In this document: positions 36,678 to 49,731 of the stretch, piece after piece
Layout: each line of letters starts with the position of its first letter
Numbering within the stretch: the first letter of the stretch is position 1
Assembly (NCBI GenBank): GCA_018817205.1
Contig: JAHIUE010000080.1
Coordinates: 1-49,731, forward strand
Source: Patescibacteria group bacterium
Lineage (GTDB): Bacteria; Patescibacteriota; Microgenomatia; Daviesbacterales; UBA10151
Direction: 5' to 3'
DNA: 49,731 nucleotides
Translations under genes and position numbers: made by a program
Notes under the pieces: generated by a model
Database searches by the model: none
What the model was told of the DNA's origin: nothing
Seen by the model: the letters and a program-made list of their open reading frames with translations, nothing else

Positions 36678-38146
36678 AAGGGAATTTTTGGTTTCGTCAA
36701 ATCTGCAATCACAAAGTCTTCTGTATCTTCCAAAACTTCAAAATGTTCCATCACCCATTTAGTCCTATCATCTTTTACGGTAGATACATAACTTGTAACC
36801 CCATAATCAGTTACTAGTTCCACAAGTGGCAGCATTTCGGCAGCAAACCCAGGACGGTTTGTTTGATACAAAAAGGCAGTGTCGCCATTATACGGTGCTA
36901 AAACTACCGCCCGTTTTGGTAATATTTGGTCGGCCCTTTTGCCGGCTTCAACGATGGCGGGATTATTCACTTTATAAAATTCTTTGACAACTTTGTAGCC
37001 AAAATAGAAGGACAAGGGGAATAAAAGCAAAACCAGTAGTATGGTCCAAATTCTTGGTAAAAAGGCGGCGTTCCCCTTCAAGAGCCGGATAAAACCTAAA
37101 GAGAAAAAAATACTGGCTACCGGCACAAAAAGTATTTGGTAGTAATTATGCCTGACATTACCTGTTGCAAAAACTGCCATGAATAATAAAGAAGACAAAG
37201 CCCAAAAATGTAAGAAGTAATTCCCATTTTTTGGTCTACTGATAAATCCAACGAGGAACAGTACTAATCCTGTTGCGCCCAAAATTTCCCGTCCCATTCT
37301 TTCTGATATTATCCACCACCAAAATGCCGGCCTAAACCGAATCCCATCACCATTAAGTAACCAATTAGCTGCCGGAATCCCTTGGGGTTGTTGAAATATC
37401 CAAAGTCTCCATAAAGCAAACGGCAGTAAAGCAATTGCCGTCAAAAGTATAAACTTAATCCAGAATCTTTTCTCGCCTCGTTTGAAAACCGGATAAAGTA
37501 ACGGCAAAAAGAAAAAAATTGCCCATGGCTTGATTAAAAATGCTATAACGGAAAAAATAAATCCTAAAACCGCATGTAAGTTTCTATTACTTTCTATCCA
37601 TTTGTCCATAAAATAAATCATCCCTAAAGCAAAGAAAACAAAAGTCGCCTCAGGCAATGTGGTCCTTGAGAAAAAAACATTAAAAGGTAATAAGGCAAAA
37701 GTAAAGGCCGTTACAAATCCCGCAAAAATACCTGCATATTTTTTAGCTATAAAGAATATTAATGCTATTGAACCTAAAGAAAAAATTACGGAAACAAGAC
37801 GGTGATATACTTCGTTAATCCCAAAGAAAACATATAAAGGATAAACCGCGATATTATAAACTGGAAACTCAACAAACCGGAACCTGGCAGGATTTATAAT
37901 AGGATTTTCCGCCACTCCCGACATATCATCATATTTTGGGAAAAATGGGTTAAATCCCTCTTTGATAAAATTTCTTGTCACTGCCGCAGTATCAGCCTGC
38001 CGCCATGAATGCCAATCGGCAATGGGCGAGTCAATTCTGTAAAGTCTTACCAAAAGACCAAAGAAAATTATAATTAGTAGCCAAAAATATTGGTTTAAGA
38101 TCGTCAGATCGCAAGCTTTGCTTACAAATACTTTAAATATTTTCAT
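36674..38146 (-). CDS. GT-C fold membrane glycosyltransferase (ArnT/PMT, GT39/GT83-like)
   Basis: 490 aa polytopic; WHSWRQADTAAVTRNF first-loop motif typical of the PMT_2/ArnT-like family. Confidence 0.65.
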   Translation of the reverse strand: MKIFKVFVSKACDLTILNQYFWLLIIIFFGLLVRLYRIDSPIADWHSWRQADTAAVTRNFIKEGFNPFFPKYDDMSGVAENPIINPARFRFVEFPVYNIAVYPLYVFFGINEVYHRLVSVIFSLGSIALIFFIAKKYAGIFAGFVTAFTFALLPFNVFFSRTTLPEATFVFFALGMIYFMDKWIESNRNLHAVLGFIFSVIAFLIKPWAIFFFLPLLYPVFKRGEKRFWIKFILLTAIALLPFALWRLWIFQQPQGIPAANWLLNGDGIRFRPAFWWWIISERMGREILGATGLVLFLVGFISRPKNGNYFLHFWALSSLLFMAVFATGNVRHNYYQILFVPVASIFFSLGFIRLLKGNAAFLPRIWTILLVLLLFPLSFYFGYKVVKEFYKVNNPAIVEAGKRADQILPKRAVVLAPYNGDTAFLYQTNRPGFAAEMLPLVELVTDYGVTSYVSTVKDDRTKWVMEHFEVLEDTEDFVIADLTKPKIPL

Positions 38147-39564
38147 TCCTTAAACTTTAAAGCAGCCAAATTAAGTCCCAGTATCATCCAAAAAAGAGAT
38201 GCCACTTTGGAAGCCTCAAATACATCAATAAATAGACCGTTTACCAAAAATGCAAAAAGCATAGCTAAAACCCCTGCTGAAAAATATCTCACCAGCCTAC
38301 TGTCGTACCTGCTTGCATTAAATATCCTTTTCCCCACCTCAGTTAAAATTAAAAATAACGAGAGCGTTCCCAATATTCCCACTTCTCCTAAAGAACGCAA
38401 GAAATCGTTATCTGTTGCTATGTCTAAAGAAGCATAGCCTGTACCGAGAAGCGGATTTTTTACAAAAGCTCTGATGGCTCTTGGCCATTCAATGTTATAT
38501 CTGATTGCAAAAGATCTATAAACACCAAGTTGAGTGGTATCAATAGGCTCTCCCGGAGTAATATCCGTTGCTGTTTGCCCCGAGGGAGAAGCAAAAGAAG
38601 ATGAAGATGCAGACTCACTTGAGGTCTTAATTGCCAGTGTCGGAATATTTAATTTGCTCCTTACCTGCTGGTCTTGCGTTTGACTTACGTATCTTTGTCC
38701 TCCTGAAAAAAGGTTCACAGTCGCTGTTGAAATCAACCTATCACGAAGTTGCGAGGGGTAAATTAAAATTACAACGGCCGCGATAAAAATCAGTAAAATA
38801 AATTTTGTTTTCCTCGAAAAAAGAAGGGCTAAAACCACTCCGGCAAATGCGGCAACAAAAGATATTCTTGCGGCTGTCATAATTAAGACCAAAAGAGACA
38901 AACCCCCAAGAGCTAAAATTATCAATTTCATCTTTTTAGAAACAGCGAAAAAAAGAGCAGAAAGTACGGTCAATGCCATTACCAAATATACGGCCAAGTC
39001 ATAATGTCCGGCAAAAGTAGAATTTGCTCTGGCTCCCGGAGTCAATCTCAAAATTAGACCTTTTGAAAATTCGGAATTAGTCGTAGATATAACAGGTAAA
39101 TCTAGAAACTGTTGACCTAGGGCATACAAATTCACTGAGACTACTGTTAAAGCTAAAAAGACTAGGACCCAAACAAACTGTTTTTTGCTTTTTACCACAC
39201 TTGCTACAACCGGCAGTAATAAAATAAATTCAACCCTTCTTAAGAAGTGCAGGATGCTGATATGAGGAGTTACAGTATGAGTTAAAAAAACCGCAGAAAA
39301 TGTAGAAACAAACCCAATAAAGAAAAATAGCAGCAAGCTTAGGCTTAATTTATCTTTTAGAAAACTCCTAACTTGATTCGAAATTACCAAATAAATCACC
39401 CAAAGCCCCAAAGTTAGGCCAATAATCAAATCCTCAATTCTTATGGCGACAAAAGTGCCGGTAATGTTAATTAGCGGAAATTTTGGGTATAGAGGGATAA
39501 ACACGAAAAGAAACAAAACCAAATAGAATAATATTTTTTCTAAAGTTGAGATGAATTTTTTCAT
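38143..39564 (-). CDS. O-antigen ligase/polymerase-like (Wzy_C-type) membrane protein
   Basis: 473 aa with more than 10 hydrophobic helices and one large Ser/Thr-rich loop; glycan-locus context. Confidence 0.5.
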   Translation of the reverse strand: MKKFISTLEKILFYLVLFLFVFIPLYPKFPLINITGTFVAIRIEDLIIGLTLGLWVIYLVISNQVRSFLKDKLSLSLLLFFFIGFVSTFSAVFLTHTVTPHISILHFLRRVEFILLLPVVASVVKSKKQFVWVLVFLALTVVSVNLYALGQQFLDLPVISTTNSEFSKGLILRLTPGARANSTFAGHYDLAVYLVMALTVLSALFFAVSKKMKLIILALGGLSLLVLIMTAARISFVAAFAGVVLALLFSRKTKFILLIFIAAVVILIYPSQLRDRLISTATVNLFSGGQRYVSQTQDQQVRSKLNIPTLAIKTSSESASSSSFASPSGQTATDITPGEPIDTTQLGVYRSFAIRYNIEWPRAIRAFVKNPLLGTGYASLDIATDNDFLRSLGEVGILGTLSLFLILTEVGKRIFNASRYDSRLVRYFSAGVLAMLFAFLVNGLFIDVFEASKVASLFWMILGLNLAALKFKE

Positions 39565-39567
39565 ATT

Positions 39568-40110
39568 TCAAACAATAATTTTCTTTCCCAATTTGAAAAG
39601 CCAATAAATTGAAGTTACTACTCCTAACCAAACTAAAAATTTTGTAAACTTCGAGGACGGATAAAAACGTAGCGTCGTCTTTGTATAAAAGCTCCTGTTC
39701 TCAACTTCAAATTTGCTAGATCCCCAGAATTTTGGTTCGAAATTTTCGTAAAACGGTTCAAAGCCATTAACATAGAATGAATCTCTTAAGGGATAAACAA
39801 ATTCCTCGAAGTATGTAGAATCCGTATGTTTTTTTATGGCAGTCCAAGAATATTCGGGAGGGTGGTTTAGTCTAATCGGAGGAAAAGGCAGGAAAGTTTT
39901 TTGCCAATAATTTGATTTGTAAAATGAGGTAACAAATTGCCTGTAATTATCCGAAAAATAACCTGCGACATTGGGGATTTCAACCGTGTCACCCGAAAGC
40001 GTAGATTTTATAGAGGAGGGGAGTGGCTTAAAATCGGAAATTTTACCGGGTCCAGGCCAAAGCATGTAAATTAAAAGTAAAAGTGAAAAAATAATGAATA
40101 GTTTTTTCAT
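39568..40110 (-). CDS. hypothetical bitopic membrane protein
   Basis: 180 aa with N- and C-terminal hydrophobic helices; aromatic-rich middle; no family recognised. Confidence 0.5.
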   Translation of the reverse strand: MKKLFIIFSLLLLIYMLWPGPGKISDFKPLPSSIKSTLSGDTVEIPNVAGYFSDNYRQFVTSFYKSNYWQKTFLPFPPIRLNHPPEYSWTAIKKHTDSTYFEEFVYPLRDSFYVNGFEPFYENFEPKFWGSSKFEVENRSFYTKTTLRFYPSSKFTKFLVWLGVVTSIYWLFKLGKKIIV

Positions 40111-40115
40111 TAATG

Positions 40116-40757
40116 CTATTGGAACAGCCTTGCCCTGCCTAATTTATAATGAAGGTCCTTTATTTTCCTCTCCCCTATTGCTTCAGCAGGCACACCTCCA
40201 ACTATCGCATACTGGGAAACATCTTTTGTAACAACCGCCCCAGCGGCAATTATCGCTCCTTTCCCTATTTTTACCCCGGGCAGAATAATCGCCCTCGGAC
40301 CTATGAAAACATAATCCCCTACTTCAACAGAAGCGGATATTGCATGGAAATCTTCGGAATTTATATCGTGTTCACTGTTATAGATCATTACACCCGAAGC
40401 AATATCCACATGATTACCGATAATAAGTTTATCCCTGCCGTCCAAAAAAGCATTATCGCCAATAATTGTCCCCTCGCCAATGACAATATTGGGAAGGTAA
40501 TAAAAACGGGCTCCAACATGAATTCTTGATCCTTTTCCAATCCTTATTCCAGCCAGGCTGTACATAAATAAACGGAAGTAGTGACAAGGTATCAATCCTG
40601 CCCAAGTTAAAAGCATCAATTCAAAATCCAATATCCAGTTAAAGACCCTGTTTACGGCTTTTTTGGAAGCCTCTTGTGTACTTAATGGTTTTCCCATCCT
40701 GTCCTGAAATAGAGCCATATATAAGTTAATTATATGGGGAAAGACTAGTATAAGCAA
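40116..40757 (-). CDS. hexapeptide-repeat (LbH) O-acetyltransferase
   Basis: Repeated [LIV]G..xx hexapeptides (IGKGSRIHVGARF, IGEGTIIGDNAF, IGNHVDIASGVMI, IGKGAIIAAGAVV) and VGGVPA. Start may be ATG 40718. Confidence 0.85.
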   Translation of the reverse strand: MLILVFPHIINLYMALFQDRMGKPLSTQEASKKAVNRVFNWILDFELMLLTWAGLIPCHYFRLFMYSLAGIRIGKGSRIHVGARFYYLPNIVIGEGTIIGDNAFLDGRDKLIIGNHVDIASGVMIYNSEHDINSEDFHAISASVEVGDYVFIGPRAIILPGVKIGKGAIIAAGAVVTKDVSQYAIVGGVPAEAIGERKIKDLHYKLGRARLFQ

Positions 40758-40760
40758 ACC

Positions 40761-41456
40761 CTATGTGTAATATTTCCTAAGTAAGGCCATTGCCAAAATT
40801 TCAACACAGTTATAAATAGGCAAGGAATATCTCTTTGGAAAAACTAAAGGCAACTCTGTACACCCTAAAATAATTCCTTGCGCCCCTTCCTTTTTTAAAG
40901 AGTTTGCGACCCTTAAAAGCGTTTTTTCATCACTATATGTATTTTTTTCTTTTAAAACATTCTCAACAATATCCTTAAATAGTCTTTGTATATTTTCTGT
41001 CGGGATAAGAACATCTACACCTTTTTTCTTCAAAGCTTCCTGATATAATCCCTCTCTTATTGTAGCAGGAGAAGCCAATAACCCAATTCTATTTACATTA
41101 TCTTTACTTACTTGCAATGCAACTTCCTTAATCATAGAAAGAAATGGAGTTTTTGACACTTGTTGAAGATCATTAAGTAATAAGTGAGCTGTATTGCATA
41201 CAATACAAAAAGATAAAACATCACATTTATCTAATTGAATTACTCTTTGCTTAAGCATTTTCAATGCAATCTTCTTTTCGTAATCATTAGCAATAAAACC
41301 TGGTATAGGAATGGAGTCAAGAATAATTTCCGGAAAATCAGCATTGTTTTTTACACCAAAAAACTTCACTGACAATTCTATCAGTAACTTGCATAAATAT
41401 AATGACGCTTGAGGTCCTATTCCTCCTAAAATACCAATAGCTTTTTTACTTTTCAT
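40761..41456 (-). CDS. Asp/Glu/hydantoin-racemase family protein (aspartate-racemase-like)
   Basis: GILGGIGPQAS, and both catalytic Cys boxes CNTAH and LGCTELPL. The ATG overlaps the radical-SAM stop by 4 nt. Confidence 0.88.
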   Translation of the reverse strand: MKSKKAIGILGGIGPQASLYLCKLLIELSVKFFGVKNNADFPEIILDSIPIPGFIANDYEKKIALKMLKQRVIQLDKCDVLSFCIVCNTAHLLLNDLQQVSKTPFLSMIKEVALQVSKDNVNRIGLLASPATIREGLYQEALKKKGVDVLIPTENIQRLFKDIVENVLKEKNTYSDEKTLLRVANSLKKEGAQGIILGCTELPLVFPKRYSLPIYNCVEILAMALLRKYYT

Positions 41457-42688
41457 ACTTTAAAGATGGTTTTCTCCATTTCTCCAAGAGCCAACCCTGG
41501 CCTGGTATCAAGACCACACTTTATTACTCCTTCTTGTCTTAATAAATCCAAAGAGCAATCACCGCATAAATCCGGCATATCGTCTATTGTCTTTTTCTCT
41601 TCATTAAATATACAATTTAGTTGACAAAGGCGATAACAACCTGTTGTCACTAAACCTGTCCACCAGCAACCCGAACCTCGACATAGCTCCTTACAGCTTT
41701 GAATTCTAAAACCCTGTTCTAAAAATGCTTGCCTTATTGAGTTTTGCTCTATCTGTCCGAAAGTTCCTGATAAGACATTTCCAAATTTAGCATAGTTTGT
41801 ACTACCTCTGCCCATATTAGTACATGGCAAATAAAGCCCATCATTATTGATCTGACCTCCTTTTTTTATCATATCGCATGCTTCATCATAGGCCTGAGGC
41901 GAAACAGCATCATTGTAGGTTGGTAAGATTAATCCTATTTCTCTATCTATCTCTATAAATTCCTCCATTTGGACAACAATCCTTTTGGTTAGCAACGGAT
42001 AAGTAGTCAACCACTCAATCTGCCTATCGTAGCTTTCATTGGGTGGAGATACATATTCCATGATTGGTTTAGTACCCAAACTTTCTCTCGCCCACCTAAA
42101 TACTCTGCTCAAATTGCCGTTATTCATTACAGCATCAGTTAAACAGCATTGCATCATCAATCTATCTCCTCCTTTTTCTTTAAAGATCCTCTCTGCATTT
42201 CTCCATGCCGCATGACTATTTTGAAGAGTACCGAGTTTACCTACACTAACGTCCTGAATCTTTTCCGCTAAAGTATCATCATCTATAGTATGTCTATGCA
42301 TTAATAAACTTACGCCCGGGATAAGCACTTGACGCGCATAGGCTTCATCAGCAAACCTTAATCCATGGCTTATTAACAATACGAACTTAAACCCTAAATT
42401 AACTGCTTCCTGTAATAATTGAGGTAAATCGGGATTTTGTGTGGGTTCCGCACCCAAGAAGTATACTTCAGTAACTCCGGCTTCTCTTAATTTACGCATC
42501 GTTTTGGAAGCAATTTCCGGTAGTAAATAACCTGCTTTTCCAGCCCCGGGAGGTCGATAGCAATGAGGACACGCTAAATCACAAGCTTCTGACGCATCAA
42601 GACCAGCACCATTAATTTTAACTGGTCCGTCTTTTTGACCAGTAAATCCTCTAAATTCGTTTATTGATTCTAATTTGCCTATTGGCAT
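41453..42688 (-). CDS. radical SAM enzyme with Cys-rich SPASM/twitch-like C-terminal domain
   Basis: CDLACPHCY fits CxxxCxxC; GAEPTQNPDL fits the GGEP-like motif. The C-terminal cluster is CKELCRGSGCWWTGLVTTGCYRLCQLNC...CGDC. AGGAGAGGA RBS at 42691-42699. Confidence 0.85.
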   Translation of the reverse strand: MPIGKLESINEFRGFTGQKDGPVKINGAGLDASEACDLACPHCYRPPGAGKAGYLLPEIASKTMRKLREAGVTEVYFLGAEPTQNPDLPQLLQEAVNLGFKFVLLISHGLRFADEAYARQVLIPGVSLLMHRHTIDDDTLAEKIQDVSVGKLGTLQNSHAAWRNAERIFKEKGGDRLMMQCCLTDAVMNNGNLSRVFRWARESLGTKPIMEYVSPPNESYDRQIEWLTTYPLLTKRIVVQMEEFIEIDREIGLILPTYNDAVSPQAYDEACDMIKKGGQINNDGLYLPCTNMGRGSTNYAKFGNVLSGTFGQIEQNSIRQAFLEQGFRIQSCKELCRGSGCWWTGLVTTGCYRLCQLNCIFNEEKKTIDDMPDLCGDCSLDLLRQEGVIKCGLDTRPGLALGEMEKTIFKV

Positions 42689-42707
42689 ATTCCTCTCCTT
42701 TCCATTT

Positions 42708-42756
42708 AAAAAACCCTTGCAAATTTCCGATCAATACAATCAGAAACTCACAAGGG
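42708..42756 (-). terminator. intrinsic terminator of the T-box leader
   Basis: 18-bp hairpin (4 G-U pairs) pairing 42739-42756 with 42714-42731, 7-nt loop, followed by UUUUUU (42708-42713). Its 5' arm CCCUUG is shared with the antiterminator. Confidence 0.8.
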
Positions 42757-42901
42757 CCATTTAGGCGGTGCCACCTTGATTTTTACTTATTCATGCTCTT
42801 CTTTTTCTTCATAGAAAACAAAGAGTGCTGACTTTTACGGTTTCGCCTCCGTAGCATACTCTTGCTCTACTCCCCGGTTCCAACCTTCCGGATCAAAGCA
42901 T
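42708..42901 (-). promoter_or_regulatory. T-box riboswitch (tRNA-responsive leader)
   Basis: T-box core AAGGUGGCACCGCC (42764-42777). Canonical antiterminator: helix CAAGG/CCUUG, 7-nt bulge UGGCACC, helix GCC/GGC, loop UAAAU. A competing terminator is present. The Stem-I-like part has a K-turn-like base, an AGAGUA bulge and an AGGCGAAA distal loop. Confidence 0.75.
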
Positions 42902-42912
42902 TTATAGTTTTT

Positions 42913-43170
42913 CTAATTTACTACTTTAAATCTTCCTTTCTGCAGTTCTCTTGAACCGCGGGTTACTGTTGCAACCCCAACTCCTAAACTTTCTGCAATT
43001 CCCTGCTGGGGAATACCCTGTTTTAGCATTTTAACAATACGCAATCTCATTGGAATTTCCAGCCGTTCCTTTGGAGTTAAAATCCCCAAAAGAAAATCTT
43101 CCATCTTGTCTTCTCTTTTAATAGTTAATAATAAATTAATCAACTCTTGAAGTTGCTTATTTCTAACCAT
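42913..43170 (-). CDS. TrpR-family (TrpR / YerC-YecD-like) repressor
   Basis: 85 aa. LLGILTPKERLEIPMRLRIVKMLKQGIPQQGIAESLGVGVATVTRGSRELQ aligns with E. coli TrpR [53 protein letters not shown] (recalled sequence). Confidence 0.85.
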   Translation of the reverse strand: MVRNKQLQELINLLLTIKREDKMEDFLLGILTPKERLEIPMRLRIVKMLKQGIPQQGIAESLGVGVATVTRGSRELQKGRFKVVN

Positions 43171-43173
43171 TGC

Positions 43174-43207
43174 GTACTAGTATACTAGTACAAGAGTATT
43201 GTGTCAA
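43174..43207 (-). promoter_or_regulatory. promoter with an overlapping perfect 18-bp trp-operator-like palindrome
   Basis: Minus strand: TTGACA (43202-43207), 17-nt spacer, TATACT (43179-43184), then 8 nt to ATG 43170. The palindrome GTACTAGTATACTAGTAC (43174-43191) covers the -10. Confidence 0.75.
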
Positions 43208-43234
43208 GGGACGGCTTTTATATAATGGCAAGCT

Positions 43235-43636
43235 TTATAGTTGCAGGTCTGTGATGGCTCTTGCTAAATCTTCAATCGTACTCCACTTGAATGATTGGGA
43301 TGCTATCGCCGGCACATACGTTTTCGTAACGGTGTCTTTAGTTGCCGCAATAATTGGGACCCTTTTCGCCATGCAGTAACCTACCTCAATCAACATCCCT
43401 TCACTTTTGTTATCTGAAGTCTGAACCACAAAGAGAAAATCTGCATTGTCGATAATGCCAAAAGCGTGTTCCATGATTTGGCGGACACCAAGAGATTTAC
43501 CTTCTATGGCCTCATCAAAGAAAGTACTGTATGCCTCGATCCCTCGACCTTTGAACGCCTCCCTGATAGCAATCAGTACAGGTTCGACTGCCTGAGGATC
43601 CTCACCAGTCGAGCGGTAAGCAATAAAGGCTTTCAT
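43235..43636 (-). CDS. nucleoside 2-deoxyribosyltransferase-like / TIR-like flavodoxin-fold protein
   Basis: 133 aa. MKAFIAYRSTGED start, DNADFLFVV, and SEGMLIEVGYCMAKRVPIIA resemble the NDT family pattern (aD.vva.l....s.Gt..E.GyA.a.gkPv). About 50 % GC. Confidence 0.55.
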   Translation of the reverse strand: MKAFIAYRSTGEDPQAVEPVLIAIREAFKGRGIEAYSTFFDEAIEGKSLGVRQIMEHAFGIIDNADFLFVVQTSDNKSEGMLIEVGYCMAKRVPIIAATKDTVTKTYVPAIASQSFKWSTIEDLARAITDLQL

Positions 43637-43739
43637 AATAAGCTAATTATAGCAAATGCAAAAAGATTGTCCCAGCCTACGCTTTACTTATTATGAAATT
43701 AAAATATAATAAGCTTCATAAATTGAACTATAGAGTCAT

Positions 43740-44819
43740 ATGAGCGCCTGCGAACAATTGGATACAGTAGTTACCCGACGATTAGATGAGTATGCATCAG
43801 CCGTTACCACACCTGATGCTCCTGAAGTTGCCTTACCCGGAGGTATCGAGATAATTAATACCGAGTTCACGCCAGATACCTTGGGTATGAAGGTTGTTTT
43901 CACCGGCACGCGGAACGACGGTAAGGTAGCCACCTTTGAAACCGGCAGCTTTTTAGATAATGGCGGGGTCGAAAACGCTTCCGATCGACATGATATTTGT
44001 GTATCGACTGCCGGCGGTTGCACTAAGGCTTGCCGGTTCTGTTCGGTGCCATATTCTGAACTTGGCTTTGAACGCCTACTCACCGCCGAAGAATTGGTGG
44101 TCCAGACTATCTATACGATTCTGGAACGAAATCGCGGGGCTTCTATGCCAAATGCTCTAGGCTTCATGGGTAATGGTGAACCATCAGATAACGCCGCCGT
44201 CATCCCGGCAGTATGTTACTTAGCTGACAAACCTGAGCTAAATATAGAAAGAGTTACCTTTTCGACGATCGGCGAAAATATAGCCGGCATTGGTAAAATG
44301 GCCAGGAGTTTTGCTCAGCTCGATATGCGAACCATTATGCAATTTAGTCTGCATGCCGCCGATGAGACAAAACGCCGCTCAATCATACCAGGTCGAAAAC
44401 CACTTGATAAGATTCTAAAGGCGATCGATGGATACGGTGAAGTTACCGGTGAACCGGTAAAGTTCAATGTCGCACTCATGGATGGCACCTATGATTTCAA
44501 AGGCTTTACTAATGCTTCGCCAGAGGATGCTCGAATGTTGGCGCAAATCCTTACGGCACCAAGTGCCGTTTCGGGCAATCCCATCAGACGGCTCCTCAAG
44601 CTATCCGCCTACAATAGTGTTCCAGGTATACCATTTGAGCCGGCGTCATCTGTCGCAGTAGAAGCTTTTGTGGCTATTTTAGCTGAACATGGTATAACTG
44701 ATATTCAAAGGTTTCGGGGAAGTGGTATAGAAATTAATGAACAAAAAACTATTGGCGGCTTCGCTTGTGGACAGCTCAGAGCCACCACACCTAATACCCT
44801 AGCGAAAGTTCATCAATAA
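43740..44819 (+). CDS. RlmN/Cfr-family radical SAM methyltransferase-like enzyme lacking the N-terminal RNA-binding domain
   Basis: ICVSTAGGCTKACRFCS matches RlmN LCVSSQVGCALECKFCS, including the Cys118 equivalent. Also FMGNGEP, VTFSTIG, FSLHA, and C-terminal FACGQL (Cys355 equivalent). 359 aa. Confidence 0.8.
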   Translation: MSACEQLDTVVTRRLDEYASAVTTPDAPEVALPGGIEIINTEFTPDTLGMKVVFTGTRNDGKVATFETGSFLDNGGVENASDRHDICVSTAGGCTKACRFCSVPYSELGFERLLTAEELVVQTIYTILERNRGASMPNALGFMGNGEPSDNAAVIPAVCYLADKPELNIERVTFSTIGENIAGIGKMARSFAQLDMRTIMQFSLHAADETKRRSIIPGRKPLDKILKAIDGYGEVTGEPVKFNVALMDGTYDFKGFTNASPEDARMLAQILTAPSAVSGNPIRRLLKLSAYNSVPGIPFEPASSVAVEAFVAILAEHGITDIQRFRGSGIEINEQKTIGGFACGQLRATTPNTLAKVHQ

Positions 44820-45571
44820 GAATCAACGGCGGTAGCCGGTTTTTGGGTACTGACGAATAGGTGTAAGAATGGGAAAGATAAGCGGTCGGCGGTATGATAC
44901 CTATCGCCTAAGATTGTAACCACTTCGTCCGCTCTTTCCATGAAAGCATCGTTTCTCGCTCGCTCACCGTTAGAGGCCAGGAAGGCCATAGCCATTATCA
45001 TTTGAGTTACAGTGTCGGCTGTCAAGGTGCTGGTGACGTTTTGAATCTCAGTTTCTCCCTTAGCTTGCAAAGCACGTAGACAATCATGCAAGCTGTCATT
45101 AAATTGCTCACTATAACCAAGCCCGACATGGTCAAGTAGTTGGCTCCAGTCATCCTGCTTGATGCCGAGGTGGGTGACCACCAGCAAATGTCCGCCGGGT
45201 TTGACTAGTCCCCAGGCCGGGGGAACTAGCGTGGCGTGCTCACCGGCTGTGTGGGAAATGACATGGGACATCAGCACTAGGTCGTACAAACCCTTAACCT
45301 CTGTAGGAAACACTTCCTCAATAACCTGTTTGCCGGCCTGACGCAACCGGGCGGCGTACTGCGGGTTCTGCTCAATGGCCACATAATCCTCAACCATTTC
45401 TGAAAGAGGCAGAGCTACTTGGCCGTCGCCAGCGCCAATGTCGAGCAACGAGTTAGCATTATAGCGAATGATGTAGTCAGAGAATTTCGCAACATAAATT
45501 TGCTTTTCATCGGTACACTGCAGAAGGCTTTCAAGGCCTTGATAGTAGAGAACTTCAAAAGTCTGCGGCAT
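44813..45571 (-). CDS. class I SAM-dependent methyltransferase
   Basis: LLDIGAGDGQVA (motif I), VAIEQNP (motif II), YDLVLMSHVISH, LKPGGHLLV. Converges on the RlmN-like gene with a 7-nt overlap. Confidence 0.8.
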   Translation of the reverse strand: MPQTFEVLYYQGLESLLQCTDEKQIYVAKFSDYIIRYNANSLLDIGAGDGQVALPLSEMVEDYVAIEQNPQYAARLRQAGKQVIEEVFPTEVKGLYDLVLMSHVISHTAGEHATLVPPAWGLVKPGGHLLVVTHLGIKQDDWSQLLDHVGLGYSEQFNDSLHDCLRALQAKGETEIQNVTSTLTADTVTQMIMAMAFLASNGERARNDAFMERADEVVTILGDRYHTADRLSFPFLHLFVSTQKPATAVDSY

Positions 45572-45581
45572 ATATTGTGAG

Positions 45582-45609
45582 ATTATAGCTTATAACCAAA
45601 TTATGTCAA
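45582..45609 (-). promoter_or_regulatory. consensus sigma70 promoter of the methyltransferase gene
   Basis: Minus strand: TTGACA (45604-45609, overlapping the stop of the upstream GT4 gene), 16-nt spacer, TATAAT (45582-45587), then 10 nt to ATG 45571. Confidence 0.55.
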
Positions 45610-46742
45610 ACCTTAAGTGTAACTTTTTCAAAAACTTTTAGTACACTTCTGGCCATTTTGGACCAGGAAAATTTTCGGGCTTGGATAATTCCTGCTTTAG
45701 AATATTTTTGGCACAACTTATTATCCGTTGTCACTATCCTTATTGCCTGTTCTATCTGATCAACAGAGTAAGGATCAACCAGAAGTCCTGCTTTCCCCAC
45801 CACTTCGGGAAGAGATGAAACATTGGAAACAACCACCGGAACACCGGAGGCCATTGCCTCAACTACCGGTATCCCAAAACCTTCCCATAGCGATGGCAGG
45901 ATAAATGCTTGAGCTCCCGCAAGAAGCAAAGGCAGATTTTTAATCGGAACAAACCCCAAAAACTTTACTCTATTTTCAATCCCGAGACTTTGGGGAGTCT
46001 TCAATATCTCTTCATACATCCAACCTTCTTTGCCTTCTCCCTCAGTTTTTCCCACAATAACAAGCTGTATTTGGTCTTCTGTTCTGGCAAACGCCTCAAT
46101 AAGTCTTATTAAATTTTTCCTTGGCTGCAGAGTCCCTATATATATAATGTAGTTACTCTCTATTTTATATTTCTTTTTTACTGTTTTAATTCTGAACTCT
46201 GAATTCTGAATTCTAAATTGTTCCCGGTCATAACCTGGATAAGCTACGGTAATTTTTTCTTTTGGCACTTTGTACTCTTTACAAATATCCTCTTTGGAAA
46301 ACTGGGAGATAGTAATTATATAATCCGCATTTTCAACAGAAAATTTTGTCCAATTTTTAAGTTTATATAAATCTTTCTTGAGAAAAGTTTCTGGAAAATG
46401 TAAAAAAGACAGATCAAATACTGTTACTATCTTTTTAACCGATGCCGGTGAAAATCTTGGAATATAATGCGTCGGCGAAAAGAATATATCAGGCTTATCT
46501 TTTGCAGAATATAAGGCCAAAGGTAAAGCGATTCTAGTCCAGAACTTCTCGGGTTTTAAAATTCTATATTTCCATCCTGCTCGTTCTCTTGGTAAATCCT
46601 CAAGCGGCGGGTTTGGCAAAAGAACCGTGTAATCATTAATCTGATCATTTTCCTCCAAATGCCGGAGTAACTCATATGCCACTTGTGAAGATCCCAATCT
46701 TTGCTCAACATTTGCTTCATATCCATCAATCCAAATTCTCAT
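45606..46742 (-). CDS. glycosyltransferase family 4 (GT-B)
   Basis: [28 protein letters not shown]. Confidence 0.88.
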
Positions 46743-47764
46743 TCCGTCAACCTTTCATAAACTTTTACTGTTTGCTGTGCGGCTTTTTCCCAGGAAAATT
46801 GCTTAACTCTCTCAAAACCTTTTTTTATTAAATCCTGTCTTAACACATTGTCATTTATTATCACATTAAGTTTCTCTCTTATATCCTTTACTTTATAAGG
46901 ATCGGCATATAAAGCTGCATCTCCTCCTACCTCCGGCATGGAAGATACACTCGAGGTAATAACCGGAAGTCCTACCGAAAATGCATCCAGTATGGGAATA
47001 CCAAAACCTTCGTAAAGTGAAGGGTAAAGTAAAACTTGCGCTGAAGCATAAAGTAATTCCAACTCTTCTGTACTCAACCAGGGGAGAGTAATACCTGCGA
47101 TTACCAAATTATAATCTCGGCAGATCTCTTTTACTCTTGTTAAATTTCTTCTCTCCCCTACCCCTCCTATTGCCAATACAAACCTATCCGGCAGCTTATA
47201 CTTCTCCCTAAATTTTTTAATCTTTTCATCAGATTGTGGTCTATAATTGCCGGTCGGCCCTTCATAAATTACTGTTATTTTATCTTCCGGAATATTTGAA
47301 ACTTGCAGCAGATCCTTCTTGGTAGACTCTGAAACTGCAACCACGCAATCTATCTCTTTTTCTACCAGTTTTAATCGTCTTTTGTGAATATCAACAATTT
47401 TCGGATGTGACCACTGAGGATATTTCAAAGGCACAACGTCATGATAGGTTGTCACTTTCTTTGTCTTACTCGGAGGTTGAATCCAATCAGACGAGTGAAA
47501 AATGTCTATGGGTCCAATAAATCTCTCAATTGGTACTTTTCGCCATCTGTTAAAGAAAGGTTCAAAAAGAGTTGGAGGAAGTTTAAATGACTTTACATTT
47601 TTAAGACCTCCTTTATATGATTTTCGCAGTGAAGAGTAGAAATAAACCATCTCAAGGTTGGAAAGTAAAGATAGCTTTTCAGCTAAATTTTTTACATAAG
47701 TTGCAACACCACCCTGATGGGCAAGCTGCGATATATCCATACCCACTCGAATATTTTTATCCAT
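46739..47764 (-). CDS. glycosyltransferase family 4 (GT-B)
   Basis: EGFGIPILDAFSVGLPVITSSVSSMPEV. Confidence 0.88.
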   Translation of the reverse strand: MDKNIRVGMDISQLAHQGGVATYVKNLAEKLSLLSNLEMVYFYSSLRKSYKGGLKNVKSFKLPPTLFEPFFNRWRKVPIERFIGPIDIFHSSDWIQPPSKTKKVTTYHDVVPLKYPQWSHPKIVDIHKRRLKLVEKEIDCVVAVSESTKKDLLQVSNIPEDKITVIYEGPTGNYRPQSDEKIKKFREKYKLPDRFVLAIGGVGERRNLTRVKEICRDYNLVIAGITLPWLSTEELELLYASAQVLLYPSLYEGFGIPILDAFSVGLPVITSSVSSMPEVGGDAALYADPYKVKDIREKLNVIINDNVLRQDLIKKGFERVKQFSWEKAAQQTVKVYERLTE

Positions 47765-47773
47765 ATGAATATT

Positions 47774-49141
47774 TTACATTCTTTCCAAGATATCTGCTGT
47801 TCCAACGCTATCAATTTTTCGATAATTTTCATTTATGTATCTGTCAATACTCGGTGCAAAATCCCTAAGTCTACGGTTTTCGATCAAAACTGTTTTATCG
47901 GAAACTACAAACCGAGGTTTATCTTTTATAATCCCTTCCAGAATTCTACTTTCTGCAACTTGCATAAACCAGGGGAACTGAAAGACAAAAATATCTCCCG
48001 CCGGCATAGTGCTCGACATCTGATATAGATGAGGTTGCCCTCCAAAAACAAATATTTTCTCTCCAGGATTTGTATAATCCTTAATTTTGGCAGCCAAATT
48101 CTTAGTATGGGAATCAAAAGCAATCACTCGATCCCCCAGATGACCCTTATAAAAAGTCATCAGCCACCAAACTGCAATCAGTAAATACCCCATCCATATT
48201 CCTAATCTCCTCAATTTCCCCAATCCTCCCAATCCGTAAACGGTAGCCAAAACAGCAAAAGGCAAAGCGGGTTGAAAATGTACGAAGTCAAACCTGGTAG
48301 AAAGTCCTATCAGTGTTCCTATTAAAAAAATCAAAAGGATTTGTGCTTCCGTTAGTTTAATTTTTCTAATTACTAAAAAGGCTAAACCAAACACTAAAGC
48401 TACTCTGGAAAAATGAGCCAAGTCAGGACCTATCCCTCTACCGAATTGAGCAAACGTTGTCAGATTAAAAATAACAGTCCAGTACCAAAAATCCGTAAAC
48501 ACCCCCAAAATCCAAAAGTAAAAAAACACAATGACAATTGGTGGAAGGAGTCCTGATAAATATTTAAGTACAGCTTTAAACTTTTTATCTTTCCAAAAAA
48601 GATATATTAAAACAAAAAAAGACAAGGGGATTAAAACCTGTTTAAAAACAATTCCGATACCGAGCAATAACCCGGTTATAAAAATTTTTCTTTTATATAA
48701 AGCGTAAAAAGCAGGCAGCAGTACTAACGGCAAAAAACTGTCAATCCATAAAACCCAACCCTCAAAAAAGGGCTGCCATATTAAATATAGAATATTTACG
48801 AGTAATGCTTTTGTCTTACTTTTCAAAATTCCACGGCTTACAAAAAAGAGCATAACTTGTGTAATAAGAGCAAGAAAAATTGACCAAATTCTCGCTATTT
48901 CCGGAGTAGTCATCCCCAAATTATTTAAGTTGATTGGCAAAAACATCAGTCCCGGAAAGTGTTGATCTAAAATTTGACCGTAAGGCTTTAGGTCATGATT
49001 TGTTAAATACGGATAAATAAAAAGTTCAGGATAAGGAAAAAAAATAAGCTTTGTTAATATCAAAGCATGAAAAGATATTATTACAATCAACAAACCAATA
49101 ATTAATTTATTTGACATAATGATAAATAAATCCCACTCCAT
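47774..49141 (-). CDS. polytopic membrane protein, GT-C/ArnT-like glycosyltransferase candidate
   Basis: 455 aa with more than 10 hydrophobic helices plus a soluble C-terminal domain; the architecture matches 36674-38146. Start may be ATG 49117. Confidence 0.5.
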   Translation of the reverse strand: MEWDLFIIMSNKLIIGLLIVIISFHALILTKLIFFPYPELFIYPYLTNHDLKPYGQILDQHFPGLMFLPINLNNLGMTTPEIARIWSIFLALITQVMLFFVSRGILKSKTKALLVNILYLIWQPFFEGWVLWIDSFLPLVLLPAFYALYKRKIFITGLLLGIGIVFKQVLIPLSFFVLIYLFWKDKKFKAVLKYLSGLLPPIVIVFFYFWILGVFTDFWYWTVIFNLTTFAQFGRGIGPDLAHFSRVALVFGLAFLVIRKIKLTEAQILLIFLIGTLIGLSTRFDFVHFQPALPFAVLATVYGLGGLGKLRRLGIWMGYLLIAVWWLMTFYKGHLGDRVIAFDSHTKNLAAKIKDYTNPGEKIFVFGGQPHLYQMSSTMPAGDIFVFQFPWFMQVAESRILEGIIKDKPRFVVSDKTVLIENRRLRDFAPSIDRYINENYRKIDSVGTADILERM

Positions 49142-49730
49142 GAAAATCTCTAATATCTTTCTCTTTATATCCTAAATTAATTAATTTCTTTGCAACAAAC
49201 CTATTGGGATCGCTTATCTGCACTAAATAATCAACTAAATAAACATCTTCATTATCTTTGAGTAAATCTCCTAAATCTGCAACCGAACTTTCATCTTTAG
49301 CAGGAAAATCTTTTAGGGCTCCTTTTGCATTCAGGCTATCGCCGGCATAATAATCAAAAGGAGGCAATGTCCCAGAGCTTTCAAATAATATAATTTGTGG
49401 TTGAATATTCCTAAAAAAGAGGACTAGACTTTTCCAGTTGTCTCTTTGGTAATTGGGATTTAACAAATAAACTAAGGAGCAAAAAATTTCTATAAATAAA
49501 ACAGTAATTAAAATGCCATATTTTAATCTATTCTTAAAAGACATGATGCCGCTTGCGATTAAAATAACAAAACTAAGAATGATAAACAGAACCCTAAAAT
49601 AGCTGTATACCGGAATAAAAAAAGAAATAATTGTTGCTATTATGGGAGGAACAATGAGCCATGATAAAAGCAGTTTTCTGGGTGTATCGGCCACATGTTT
49701 TGCGCCGCGCAATAAAAGATAAACAAACAA
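49107..49730 (-). CDS. C-terminal part of another polytopic GT-C-like membrane protein (5' end outside the window)
   Basis: Open to the window edge; hydrophobic helices then a soluble tail similar in style to the neighbouring GT-C-like proteins. Confidence 0.45.
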   Translation of the reverse strand: MFVYLLLRGAKHVADTPRKLLLSWLIVPPIIATIISFFIPVYSYFRVLFIILSFVILIASGIMSFKNRLKYGILITVLFIEIFCSLVYLLNPNYQRDNWKSLVLFFRNIQPQIILFESSGTLPPFDYYAGDSLNAKGALKDFPAKDESSVADLGDLLKDNEDVYLVDYLVQISDPNRFVAKKLINLGYKEKDIRDFHGVGFIYHYVK

Positions 49731-49731
49731 A
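49731..49731. other. window end marker (no feature)
   Basis: Last base of the window; the preceding ORF continues beyond it. Confidence 0.99.

Follow-up and report, generated by a model that had tools for sequence, protein, structure and literature searches.

We report here a predicted operator of the tryptophan repressor (TrpR) type in a Patescibacteria group bacterium of the Daviesbacteria, on contig JAHIUE010000080.1 (assembly GCA_018817205.1); the whole stretch of 49,731 nucleotides (nt) that was analysed is called the window. The element is the perfect 18-bp palindrome GTACTAGTATACTAGTAC, which lies over the promoter of a gene for an 85-aa protein of the TrpR family. We regard it as a real and conserved TrpR-type operator, apparently placed for autorepression and not previously described in this lineage. 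The explanation that we favour, and consider probable as a whole, is that the palindrome is the operator of the adjacent repressor, giving tryptophan-dependent autorepression, and that a T-box-type leader behind the repressor gene adds a second checkpoint. Such a switch, TrpR autorepression together with attenuation, is of a known type; the organism is an unusual place for it.

Operator and promoter

The palindrome has exactly the sequence and the coordinates (Table 1) that an earlier, sequence-only reading of the window had given it. A search that tolerates up to 3 mismatches finds it a single time in the window, where 0.01 occurrences are expected, and a position-weight-matrix scan of the window finds no second site, just the same one shifted by 8 bp (43182-43199, 17.7 bits). 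Both scans agree with the earlier claim that the window holds no other full copy. A perfect 18-bp palindrome is not by itself unique in the window, since an AT-rich one, ATGATTTAATTAAATCAT, lies at 2653-2670. The operator consists of two tandem copies of the 8-mer TACTAGTA and, as this 8-mer is its own reverse complement, it forms a tandem array of 8-bp palindromes. A weaker unit, ATACTCTT, lies 8 bp further upstream, and relatives have a unit of the form ATACTAnt at the corresponding position.

Gene and promoter are on the minus strand, which the earlier reading had not specified, and the stretch from the promoter through the gene start reads cccTTGACAcaatactcttGTACTAGTATACTAGTACgcaATG. As that reading had proposed, the palindrome overlaps the TATACT of a TTGACA-N17-TATACT promoter, which is the best sigma-70-like match (11/12) within 40000-43800. 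The ATG follows TATACT after 8 nt, at 43170, and an in-frame TAG at 43179-43177 means that the open reading frame (ORF) cannot begin further upstream. With the start site predicted in Table 1, the repressor transcript is probably leaderless. A crude Shine-Dalgarno test was passed by 18 of the 42 long ORFs of the window; such a survey is uninformative, and the missing Shine-Dalgarno sequence at the repressor gene is thus not diagnostic of a leaderless transcript.

The promoter resembles that of the Escherichia coli trp operon (Ptrp). The Ptrp-leader sequence used for comparison is 100% identical in 5,422 of 5,426 E. coli genomes, where it overlaps trpL. The operator is identical to natural Ptrp at 15 of 18 positions and shares with it the 12-mer ACTAGTACGCAA. 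The earlier reading had counted 16 of 18 against a symmetrised E. coli operator, and the count is right for the operator sequence that it used. Anchored at the -35 and without gaps, 28 of 45 positions agree between window and Ptrp, and from the operator through ACGCAA (+1) the figure rises to 19 of 22, which upholds the likeness already noticed in the bases after the palindrome. As the alignment is ungapped, the operator stands in the same register to the -35 and the -10 in both promoters. Ptrp transcription starts at the A after AGTACGC; its equivalent in the window is A43171, 1 nt before the ATG. Moreover, the window sequence tGTACTAGTATACTAGTACg fits 15 of the 16 specified positions of the TrpR site consensus TGTAcTnGTnnACnAgTACA, a gammaproteobacterial consensus (PMC9413887).

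Conservation in relatives and metagenomes

Thirty genome loci encoding relatives of the repressor were fetched and their upstream regions lined up; 29 of them were counted. TTGAC(A/C) is present upstream in 23, and 19 align gap-free as TTGACA-N17-TATA(C/A)T, with the ATG 3-10 nt later (median 7). In these 19 loci positions 12-28 after the -35 read TACTAGTATA(C/A)TAGTA(C/T), and 18-19 of them keep the TACTAG that precedes the -10 as well as the AGTA behind it. It is these near-invariant bases on both sides of the -10, which are not promoter elements, that support the operator reading. The outer operator base is less constant (A in 13 relatives, G in 5).

An operator matrix trained on the 19 aligned sites finds sites of 15-28 bits directly upstream of trpR in six untrained loci (L015, L020, L023, L025, L026 and L029). 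Elsewhere in the 208 kb of flanking DNA it has a single weak match (13.1 bits), and it finds no second site in the larger loci. Together, the search at up to 3 mismatches and the matrix found no operator copy away from trpR promoters in the window and about 350 kb of related loci.

A search with DNA only, for exact RTACTAGTATACTAGTAY in metagenome contigs, returned at least 120 loci. In 22 of the 120 matches listed, the start of a TrpR-family ORF lies -2 to +25 nt from the 18-mer; some of these ORFs are just 36-47% identical to the window protein. About 98 of the listed matches have no adjacent TrpR gene, and many of those inspected resemble chance or repeat hits, among them some in high-GC and repeat-rich contigs of perhaps eukaryotic origin. 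We consider the palindrome to be a conserved element that is tied, as far as its distribution indicates, to the TrpR gene family, and not a chance palindrome.

Some other occurrences are recorded here for their own sake. In three unrelated contigs the 18-mer lies within a longer palindrome, CTATCAGC-18mer-GCTGATAG (L057 8077-8094, L111 7701-7718 and L123 1243-1260), one of these sites being near a racemase homolog, and in the high-GC contigs L133 and L147 it precedes GntR-like genes. Neither in these five contigs nor in L135 was a TrpR-family gene detected next to the 18-mer.

The repressor

The 85-aa protein matches Pfam PF01371 (Trp_repressor) over residues 5-79 with 72.4 bits, against a cut-off of 27. 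Its best NCBIfam match is the TrpR model TIGR01321; the model for YerC/YecD (HisR), TIGR02531, reaches 31 bits for a cut-off of 42.2. The AlphaFold model of the monomer (pLDDT 91) has five helices, and in a Foldseek search of the PDB its top 18 matches are all E. coli TrpR (TM 0.71-0.78), with the HisR-type structures 3kor, 3frw and 3g1c ranking behind (TM 0.64-0.70). The earlier description of the product as an 85-aa TrpR-like protein is well borne out by these results. Public data hold about 800 homologs, mostly of 84-85 aa, and the named ones belong to the Microgenomates group.

Residues were compared, in E. coli numbering, through HMMER alignments to solved E. coli TrpR chains and an alignment of 35 sequences. 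The 85-aa protein keeps T44, E47, R54, I57, V58, G78, A80, T81, T83, R84, G85 and S86, while R69 is replaced by Gln, K72 by Ala, I79 by Val, S88 by Glu and L41 by Gly. The two helices that the earlier reading had recognised, LTP..R.RIV and G(I/V)AT(I/V)TRGS, are indeed retained: the former aligns with E. coli TrpR 43-58 and the latter, as GVATVTRGS, with 78-86. Of the residues by which TrpR contacts DNA, namely R69, I79, A80, T81, T83 and R84 (PMC9413887), the last four are identical here and I79 is Val, so that five of the six are kept or conservative. By domain, fold, reading-head residues and operator, we assign the protein to the TrpR family.

The leader and the probable operon

Behind the repressor gene (stop codon 42915-42913) a T-box-type leader begins after 7 nt. 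At gathering thresholds Rfam reports just a tRNA in the window, and the T-box is seen in E-value mode alone (RF00230, E = 3.7e-6 in a 1.2-kb search). The score stays well below threshold because Stem I is very short: it consists of a K-turn-like base plus a hairpin of 4 bp with a loop of 10 nt, 8 nt take the place of 74 model positions, and the distal tRNA-elbow platform of a full Stem I is lacking. Forms with a very short Stem I are known from actinobacterial ileS leaders. The UGG in the loop is a putative tryptophan specifier, and the UGGC of the T-box bulge fits the discriminator base G73 of bacterial tRNA-Trp (PMC5370408). The leader folds with a z-score of -5, and the 5' arm of the terminator, GGCCCUUG, overlaps the 3' arm of the antiterminator, the two folds thus being alternatives. 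Loci L008, L122 and L155 carry the same leader; across the four leaders Stem I is near-invariant and five terminator pairs show compensatory changes.

The genes that follow encode a radical-SAM/SPASM protein and an Asp/Glu-type amino-acid racemase. The latter has the aspartate racemase 1jfl as its best PDB match (97 bits), scores 136 bits with TIGR00035 and contains no tryptophan residues. The simplest reading is that the two genes form the distal end of a single operon with two tryptophan checkpoints. On the minus strand from 43170 to 42905, between repressor gene and leader, there is no promoter match of at least 9/12 and no terminator, so that the promoter and terminator scans agree with what the earlier reading had said of this interval. 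Together with the tight junction in three relatives, this makes co-transcription of the repressor gene with the radical-SAM and racemase genes likely. It would be an alternative that the repressor gene is a single autoregulated unit and that the leader and both enzyme genes use a promoter of their own, in or after trpR. Scans for a sigma-70 consensus miss weak or atypical promoters, promoters of this phylum are uncharacterised, and Chlamydia trachomatis has a second promoter between trpR and trpBA (PMC7755916). Besides the empty interval, however, two facts speak for a shared transcript: Stem I starts 1-10 nt after the repressor stop codon in all four T-box loci, and the arrangement with trpR first, then the leader and then the structural genes is shared by the different leader types. 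We think a separate promoter unlikely.

Table 1. Coordinates of the operator, promoter, leader and genes in the window
Feature	Position	Strand	Basis
-35 hexamer TTGACA	43202..43207	-	same register in 19 aligned relatives
Weak third repeat unit ATACTCTT, upstream, 8 bp out of register with the core	43192..43199	-	matrix score
Operator core GTACTAGTATACTAGTAC, two tandem copies of TACTAGTA	43174..43191	.	conserved in relatives
-10 hexamer TATACT, within the operator	43179..43184	-	17-nt spacer to -35
Predicted transcription start, A43171 or A of ATG (leaderless or 1-nt leader)	43170..43171	-	inference
TrpR-family repressor gene, 85 aa	42913..43170	-	Pfam, NCBIfam, residue alignment, fold model
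T-box-type leader, very short Stem I, 157-nt match	42749..42905	-	sub-threshold Rfam match
Stem I hairpin CCGG-AAGGUUGGAA-CCGG, UGG at 42882-42880 followed by A	42874..42891	-	direct sequence read
T-box core CAAGGUGGCACCGCC, UGGC bulge to pair with 3' GCCA of tRNA	42764..42778	-	model match
Intrinsic terminator, 20-bp stem and U run	42708..42758	-	compensatory changes
Radical-SAM/SPASM gene, 411 aa, first structural gene after the leader, strong Shine-Dalgarno GGAAAGGAGAGG	41453..42688	-	
Asp/Glu-type amino-acid racemase gene, 231 aa, overlaps radical-SAM stop by 4 nt	40761..41456	-	

As to its surroundings, the trpR module sits in a cell-envelope cluster (GT4 glycosyltransferases, PMT_2, Wzy_C and a hexapeptide acetyltransferase; window 38000-49731), which is conserved in L004, L008, L155 and L157. 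Between the racemase gene and the acetyltransferase gene, which starts 42 nt later if the L001 start is used, no terminator is predicted; L155 has a convergent gene between them. A nucleoside 2-deoxyribosyltransferase-like gene (window 43235-43636, minus strand) is found upstream of the promoter, and divergent from it a second radical-SAM gene, RlmN/Cfr-like (43740-44819, plus strand; 96 bits, well below cut-offs). Several promoter-like matches fall between these two genes, at 43635-43754.

Leaders and genes behind the repressor in relatives

Different genes follow the leader in different relatives. TrpE scores 555 bits, above its cut-off, and the next gene, in the position of trpG, encodes a GATase-domain protein; TrpB2 scores 655 bits; a protein with a Glycos_transf_3 domain counts as trpD by this Pfam domain; TrpB was identified by eye from the N-terminal sequence; and W/Y-class tRNA synthetases, a class that spans Trp and Tyr, are taken here as trpS. 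These trp genes tie the repressor family to tryptophan and disfavour a histidine repressor of the HisR type. Many of the products are free of tryptophan, as are the tryptophanyl-tRNA synthetases (TrpRS) of candidate-phyla bacteria described by Mukai et al. (PMC5370408). Trp-free proteins of up to 560 aa stand just behind the repressor gene in L003 (4368-5465), L006 (4419-5468), L008 (2614-3816), L010 (4375-6045), L014 (457-2139), L011 (4354-5205) and L018 (4381-5277), and several of them fall into families that match nothing in Pfam or NCBIfam.

The most constant partner of the repressor gene is the racemase. A homolog lies downstream of a trpR-like gene in at least 9 genome loci, and racemase homologs are present in L003, L004, L006, L007, L008, L012, L015, L017, L028, L100, L153, L155 and L157. 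The gene before it varies: radical-SAM/SPASM, an uncharacterised family, TrpB2, or TrpE with the GATase gene; in L155 it is radical-SAM/SPASM, as in the window. A role of the racemase in tryptophan supply is our guess.

Domains related to tRNA charging were also seen. L022 (3661-5106) has a YbaK-like tRNA-editing domain (PF04073) fused to a W/Y-class tRNA synthetase, and in L155 (12481-12954) a YbaK-like PF04073 protein is encoded separately, next to the module. L028 (6364-8223) shows TrpRS-like similarity by blastp alone, and the tRNA-editing or synthetase reading of L040 (2320-3834) and L100 (490-927) comes from their N-terminal sequences alone.

Two further leader types were observed where the window has the T-box, between the trpR-like gene and the gene behind it. 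In L003 (4270-4355), L005, L006, L007/L153, L011, L018, L121/L157/L158 and L125/L137 an ORF of 25-34 codons, open in every case, ends in a conserved (E/Q)GLVW with a single Trp, e.g. MERIDTHTNEGPPGSSSEGQGLVWL*, and overlaps a covarying hairpin (CCCCUG/CAGGGG vs CUCCUG/CAGGAG). The ORF may encode a leader or arrest peptide with a single Trp, or the element may be a structured RNA. The third type, after a trpR-like gene in L010, L012-L016, L020, L022, L024, L028 and L029, runs from UGG(C/A)A through a CCUCC...GGAGG hairpin to a CCUCCC...GGGAGGUUUUUU terminator; the recurrence of GGGAGG and CCUCCC arms in it suggests attenuation through alternative pairings. Neither type has a credible Rfam match. 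Mukai et al. (PMC5370408) described a tRNA-Trp(A73) gene. The idea that the relatives' leaders hide such a gene was rejected, no tRNA-Trp being found in 36 loci.

Discussion

We propose the following mechanism as the probable one. The operator would consist of two full copies and one weak copy of TACTAGTA, 8 bp apart, covering the -10 and the start site. When tryptophan is plentiful, the repressor dimer loaded with L-tryptophan, probably two dimers in tandem, would occupy it and exclude RNA polymerase, which would shut off synthesis of the repressor as well as the genes behind it. When tryptophan falls, the promoter would fire, the transcript starting at or 1 nt before the repressor ATG. The T-box with its UGG specifier would then act as the second checkpoint, its terminator being passed only when tRNA-Trp is uncharged, and the radical-SAM/SPASM and racemase genes would be expressed.

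Several points weigh against this explanation and are taken together here. The protein scores 58.8 bits with the TrpR equivalog TIGR01321, under the cut-off of 67.25; what failed is the naming rule for an E. coli-type ortholog, not family membership. In place of Arg69, by which E. coli TrpR contacts the outer G of its operator, the protein has Gln; the loss of Arg69 may go together with the lost conservation of the outer operator base in relatives. The sixth helix (helix F) of E. coli TrpR is missing, and so is its N-terminal arm. Two residues of the presumed ligand pocket differ from E. coli TrpR: L41 is Gly and S88 is Glu. The leader scores 36.3 bits with RF00230, whose gathering score is 93. 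A weak promoter inside the trpR coding region is still conceivable. Finally, in contrast to the Trp-free proteins of relatives, the radical-SAM protein contains 5 Trp residues, and the window holds no canonical trp or trpS gene; tblastn of TrpRS, TrpE, TrpG, TrpB2, TrpD and the unknown Trp-free families gave no match in it. The UGG T-box is the only link of the window operon to control of Trp genes.

The changes at L41 and S88 mean that the ligand could be a relative of tryptophan. The same anatomy would then serve a repressor that senses an indole derivative, D-tryptophan or a product of the radical-SAM and racemase enzymes, or that binds DNA free of ligand. The differences are family-wide, the S88 position being invariant Glu and L41 Gly; E. 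coli TrpR variants changed at T44, T81 and S88 are found, by PDB titles, bound to indole-3-acetic acid; and the regulated genes of the window are not canonical trp genes. However, T44, R54, V58, T81, R84 and G85 of the presumed pocket are kept, the downstream leader carries a UGG specifier, and in relatives protein and operator head operons with trpE/G, trpB, trpB2, a trpD-type gene or trpS. We consider a different ligand rather improbable, and L-tryptophan the probable corepressor.

It has also to be considered that the conserved sequence is a strong promoter or the site of another factor, for example of GntR type, the TrpR-like protein binding elsewhere. TATACT/TATAAT does form part of the motif, and a few metagenome matches stand in front of GntR-like genes, as described for L133 and L147. 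Against this reading stand the invariant bases, phased at 8 bp, on either side of the -10, the fit to an experimentally defined TrpR consensus, and the co-occurrence with TrpR genes that are just 36-47% identical, on unrelated contigs; in the window, moreover, the site has no gene for another regulator next to it. This we judge very improbable. Least probable of all is that the protein is a histidine repressor of the HisR/YerC type: HisR shares the Pfam family and is often autoregulated (PMC9413887), and the best PDB sequence match is, narrowly, the YerC-type 3kor (34.8 vs 33.7 bits), but the HisR motif cacTTTA-N6-TAAAgtg is unlike the window operator, the YerC model scores far below that of TrpR (31 vs 58.8 bits), HisR has Thr and Ser for I79 and T83 (PMC9413887) where the window has Val and keeps T83, the structural matches put TrpR first, and the neighbours in relatives are trp genes, with no his genes in any neighbourhood viewed.

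The proposed TrpR-type switch can be set beside several described systems. With E. coli TrpR (Ptrp, PtrpR, ParoH) it shares family, fold and DNA-reading helix (VATVTRGS here, IATITRGS there), an operator of ACTAGT-centred units 8 bp apart in the Ptrp register, an autoregulated repressor gene, and repression backed by a downstream attenuator. It differs in the size of the protein (85 aa here, 108 aa there, the arm and helix F being absent here), in Arg69 and the unconserved outer operator G, and in the operator centre (TA here, TTAA there). Moreover, the repressor gene here is the first of the regulated operon, its transcript is probably leaderless, the attenuator is a T-box instead of a leader peptide, and the structural genes encode a radical-SAM/SPASM protein and a racemase.

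The closest described architecture is, by analogy, that of Chlamydia trachomatis trpRBA. There too trpR is the leading gene, and a regulatory intergenic region separates it from the structural genes, in a reduced genome where tryptophan is salvaged and not synthesised. The chlamydial intergenic region, however, has an iron-repressor (YtgR) site and a second promoter instead of a T-box (PMC7755916), and the structural genes are trpB and trpA. The system of Mukai et al. 2017 (PMC5370408) is alike in lineage and logic; they describe no operator, promoter or leader RNA, and the loci here have other structural genes and no tRNA-Trp gene. HisR (YerC/YecD) is, likewise, a small all-helical protein of the same Pfam family, often autoregulated through a 20-bp palindromic operator (PMC9413887), and differs in operator consensus (cacTTTAnnnnnnTAAAgtg; PMC9413887), pocket residues and regulon. 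T-box leaders (RF00230), short-Stem-I forms included, share the core with its UGGN bulge, an antiterminator and a terminator that exclude each other, and a Stem I loop in which A follows a codon-like triplet; they differ in that Stem I here is a 4-bp hairpin with no distal tRNA-elbow platform. In the literature we found nothing on TrpR sites or T-box leaders in candidate-phyla bacteria beyond a passing remark in PMC5370408.

The more unusual part of the finding lies in the regulated genes and in the other Trp-linked leaders of relatives. Operator and leaders may mark an unrecognised tryptophan-acquisition module of candidate-phyla bacteria, centred on the racemase and with interchangeable partners (radical-SAM/SPASM in the window; elsewhere an uncharacterised Trp-free family, TrpB2, or TrpE with a GATase gene), a proposal that we make tentatively. 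It might, for instance, serve to salvage D-tryptophan or some other precursor while tRNA-Trp is uncharged. If such a module exists, the likeness of the promoter-operator to Ptrp would point to very old conservation or to transfer as a unit.

Candidate-phyla (Patescibacteria) bacteria are mostly uncultured, and to our knowledge there is almost no experimental work on how their transcription is controlled. Here a cis-element can be assigned to its regulator with high confidence, and it is close enough to that of E. coli for direct testing there. The switch may also be used as a label, as genes behind operator and Trp-specific leader are very likely needed under tryptophan starvation. So labelled are several Trp-free families that neither Pfam nor NCBIfam matches, besides a racemase and a radical-SAM/SPASM enzyme, and all of these become candidates for tryptophan supply in organisms with reduced genomes.

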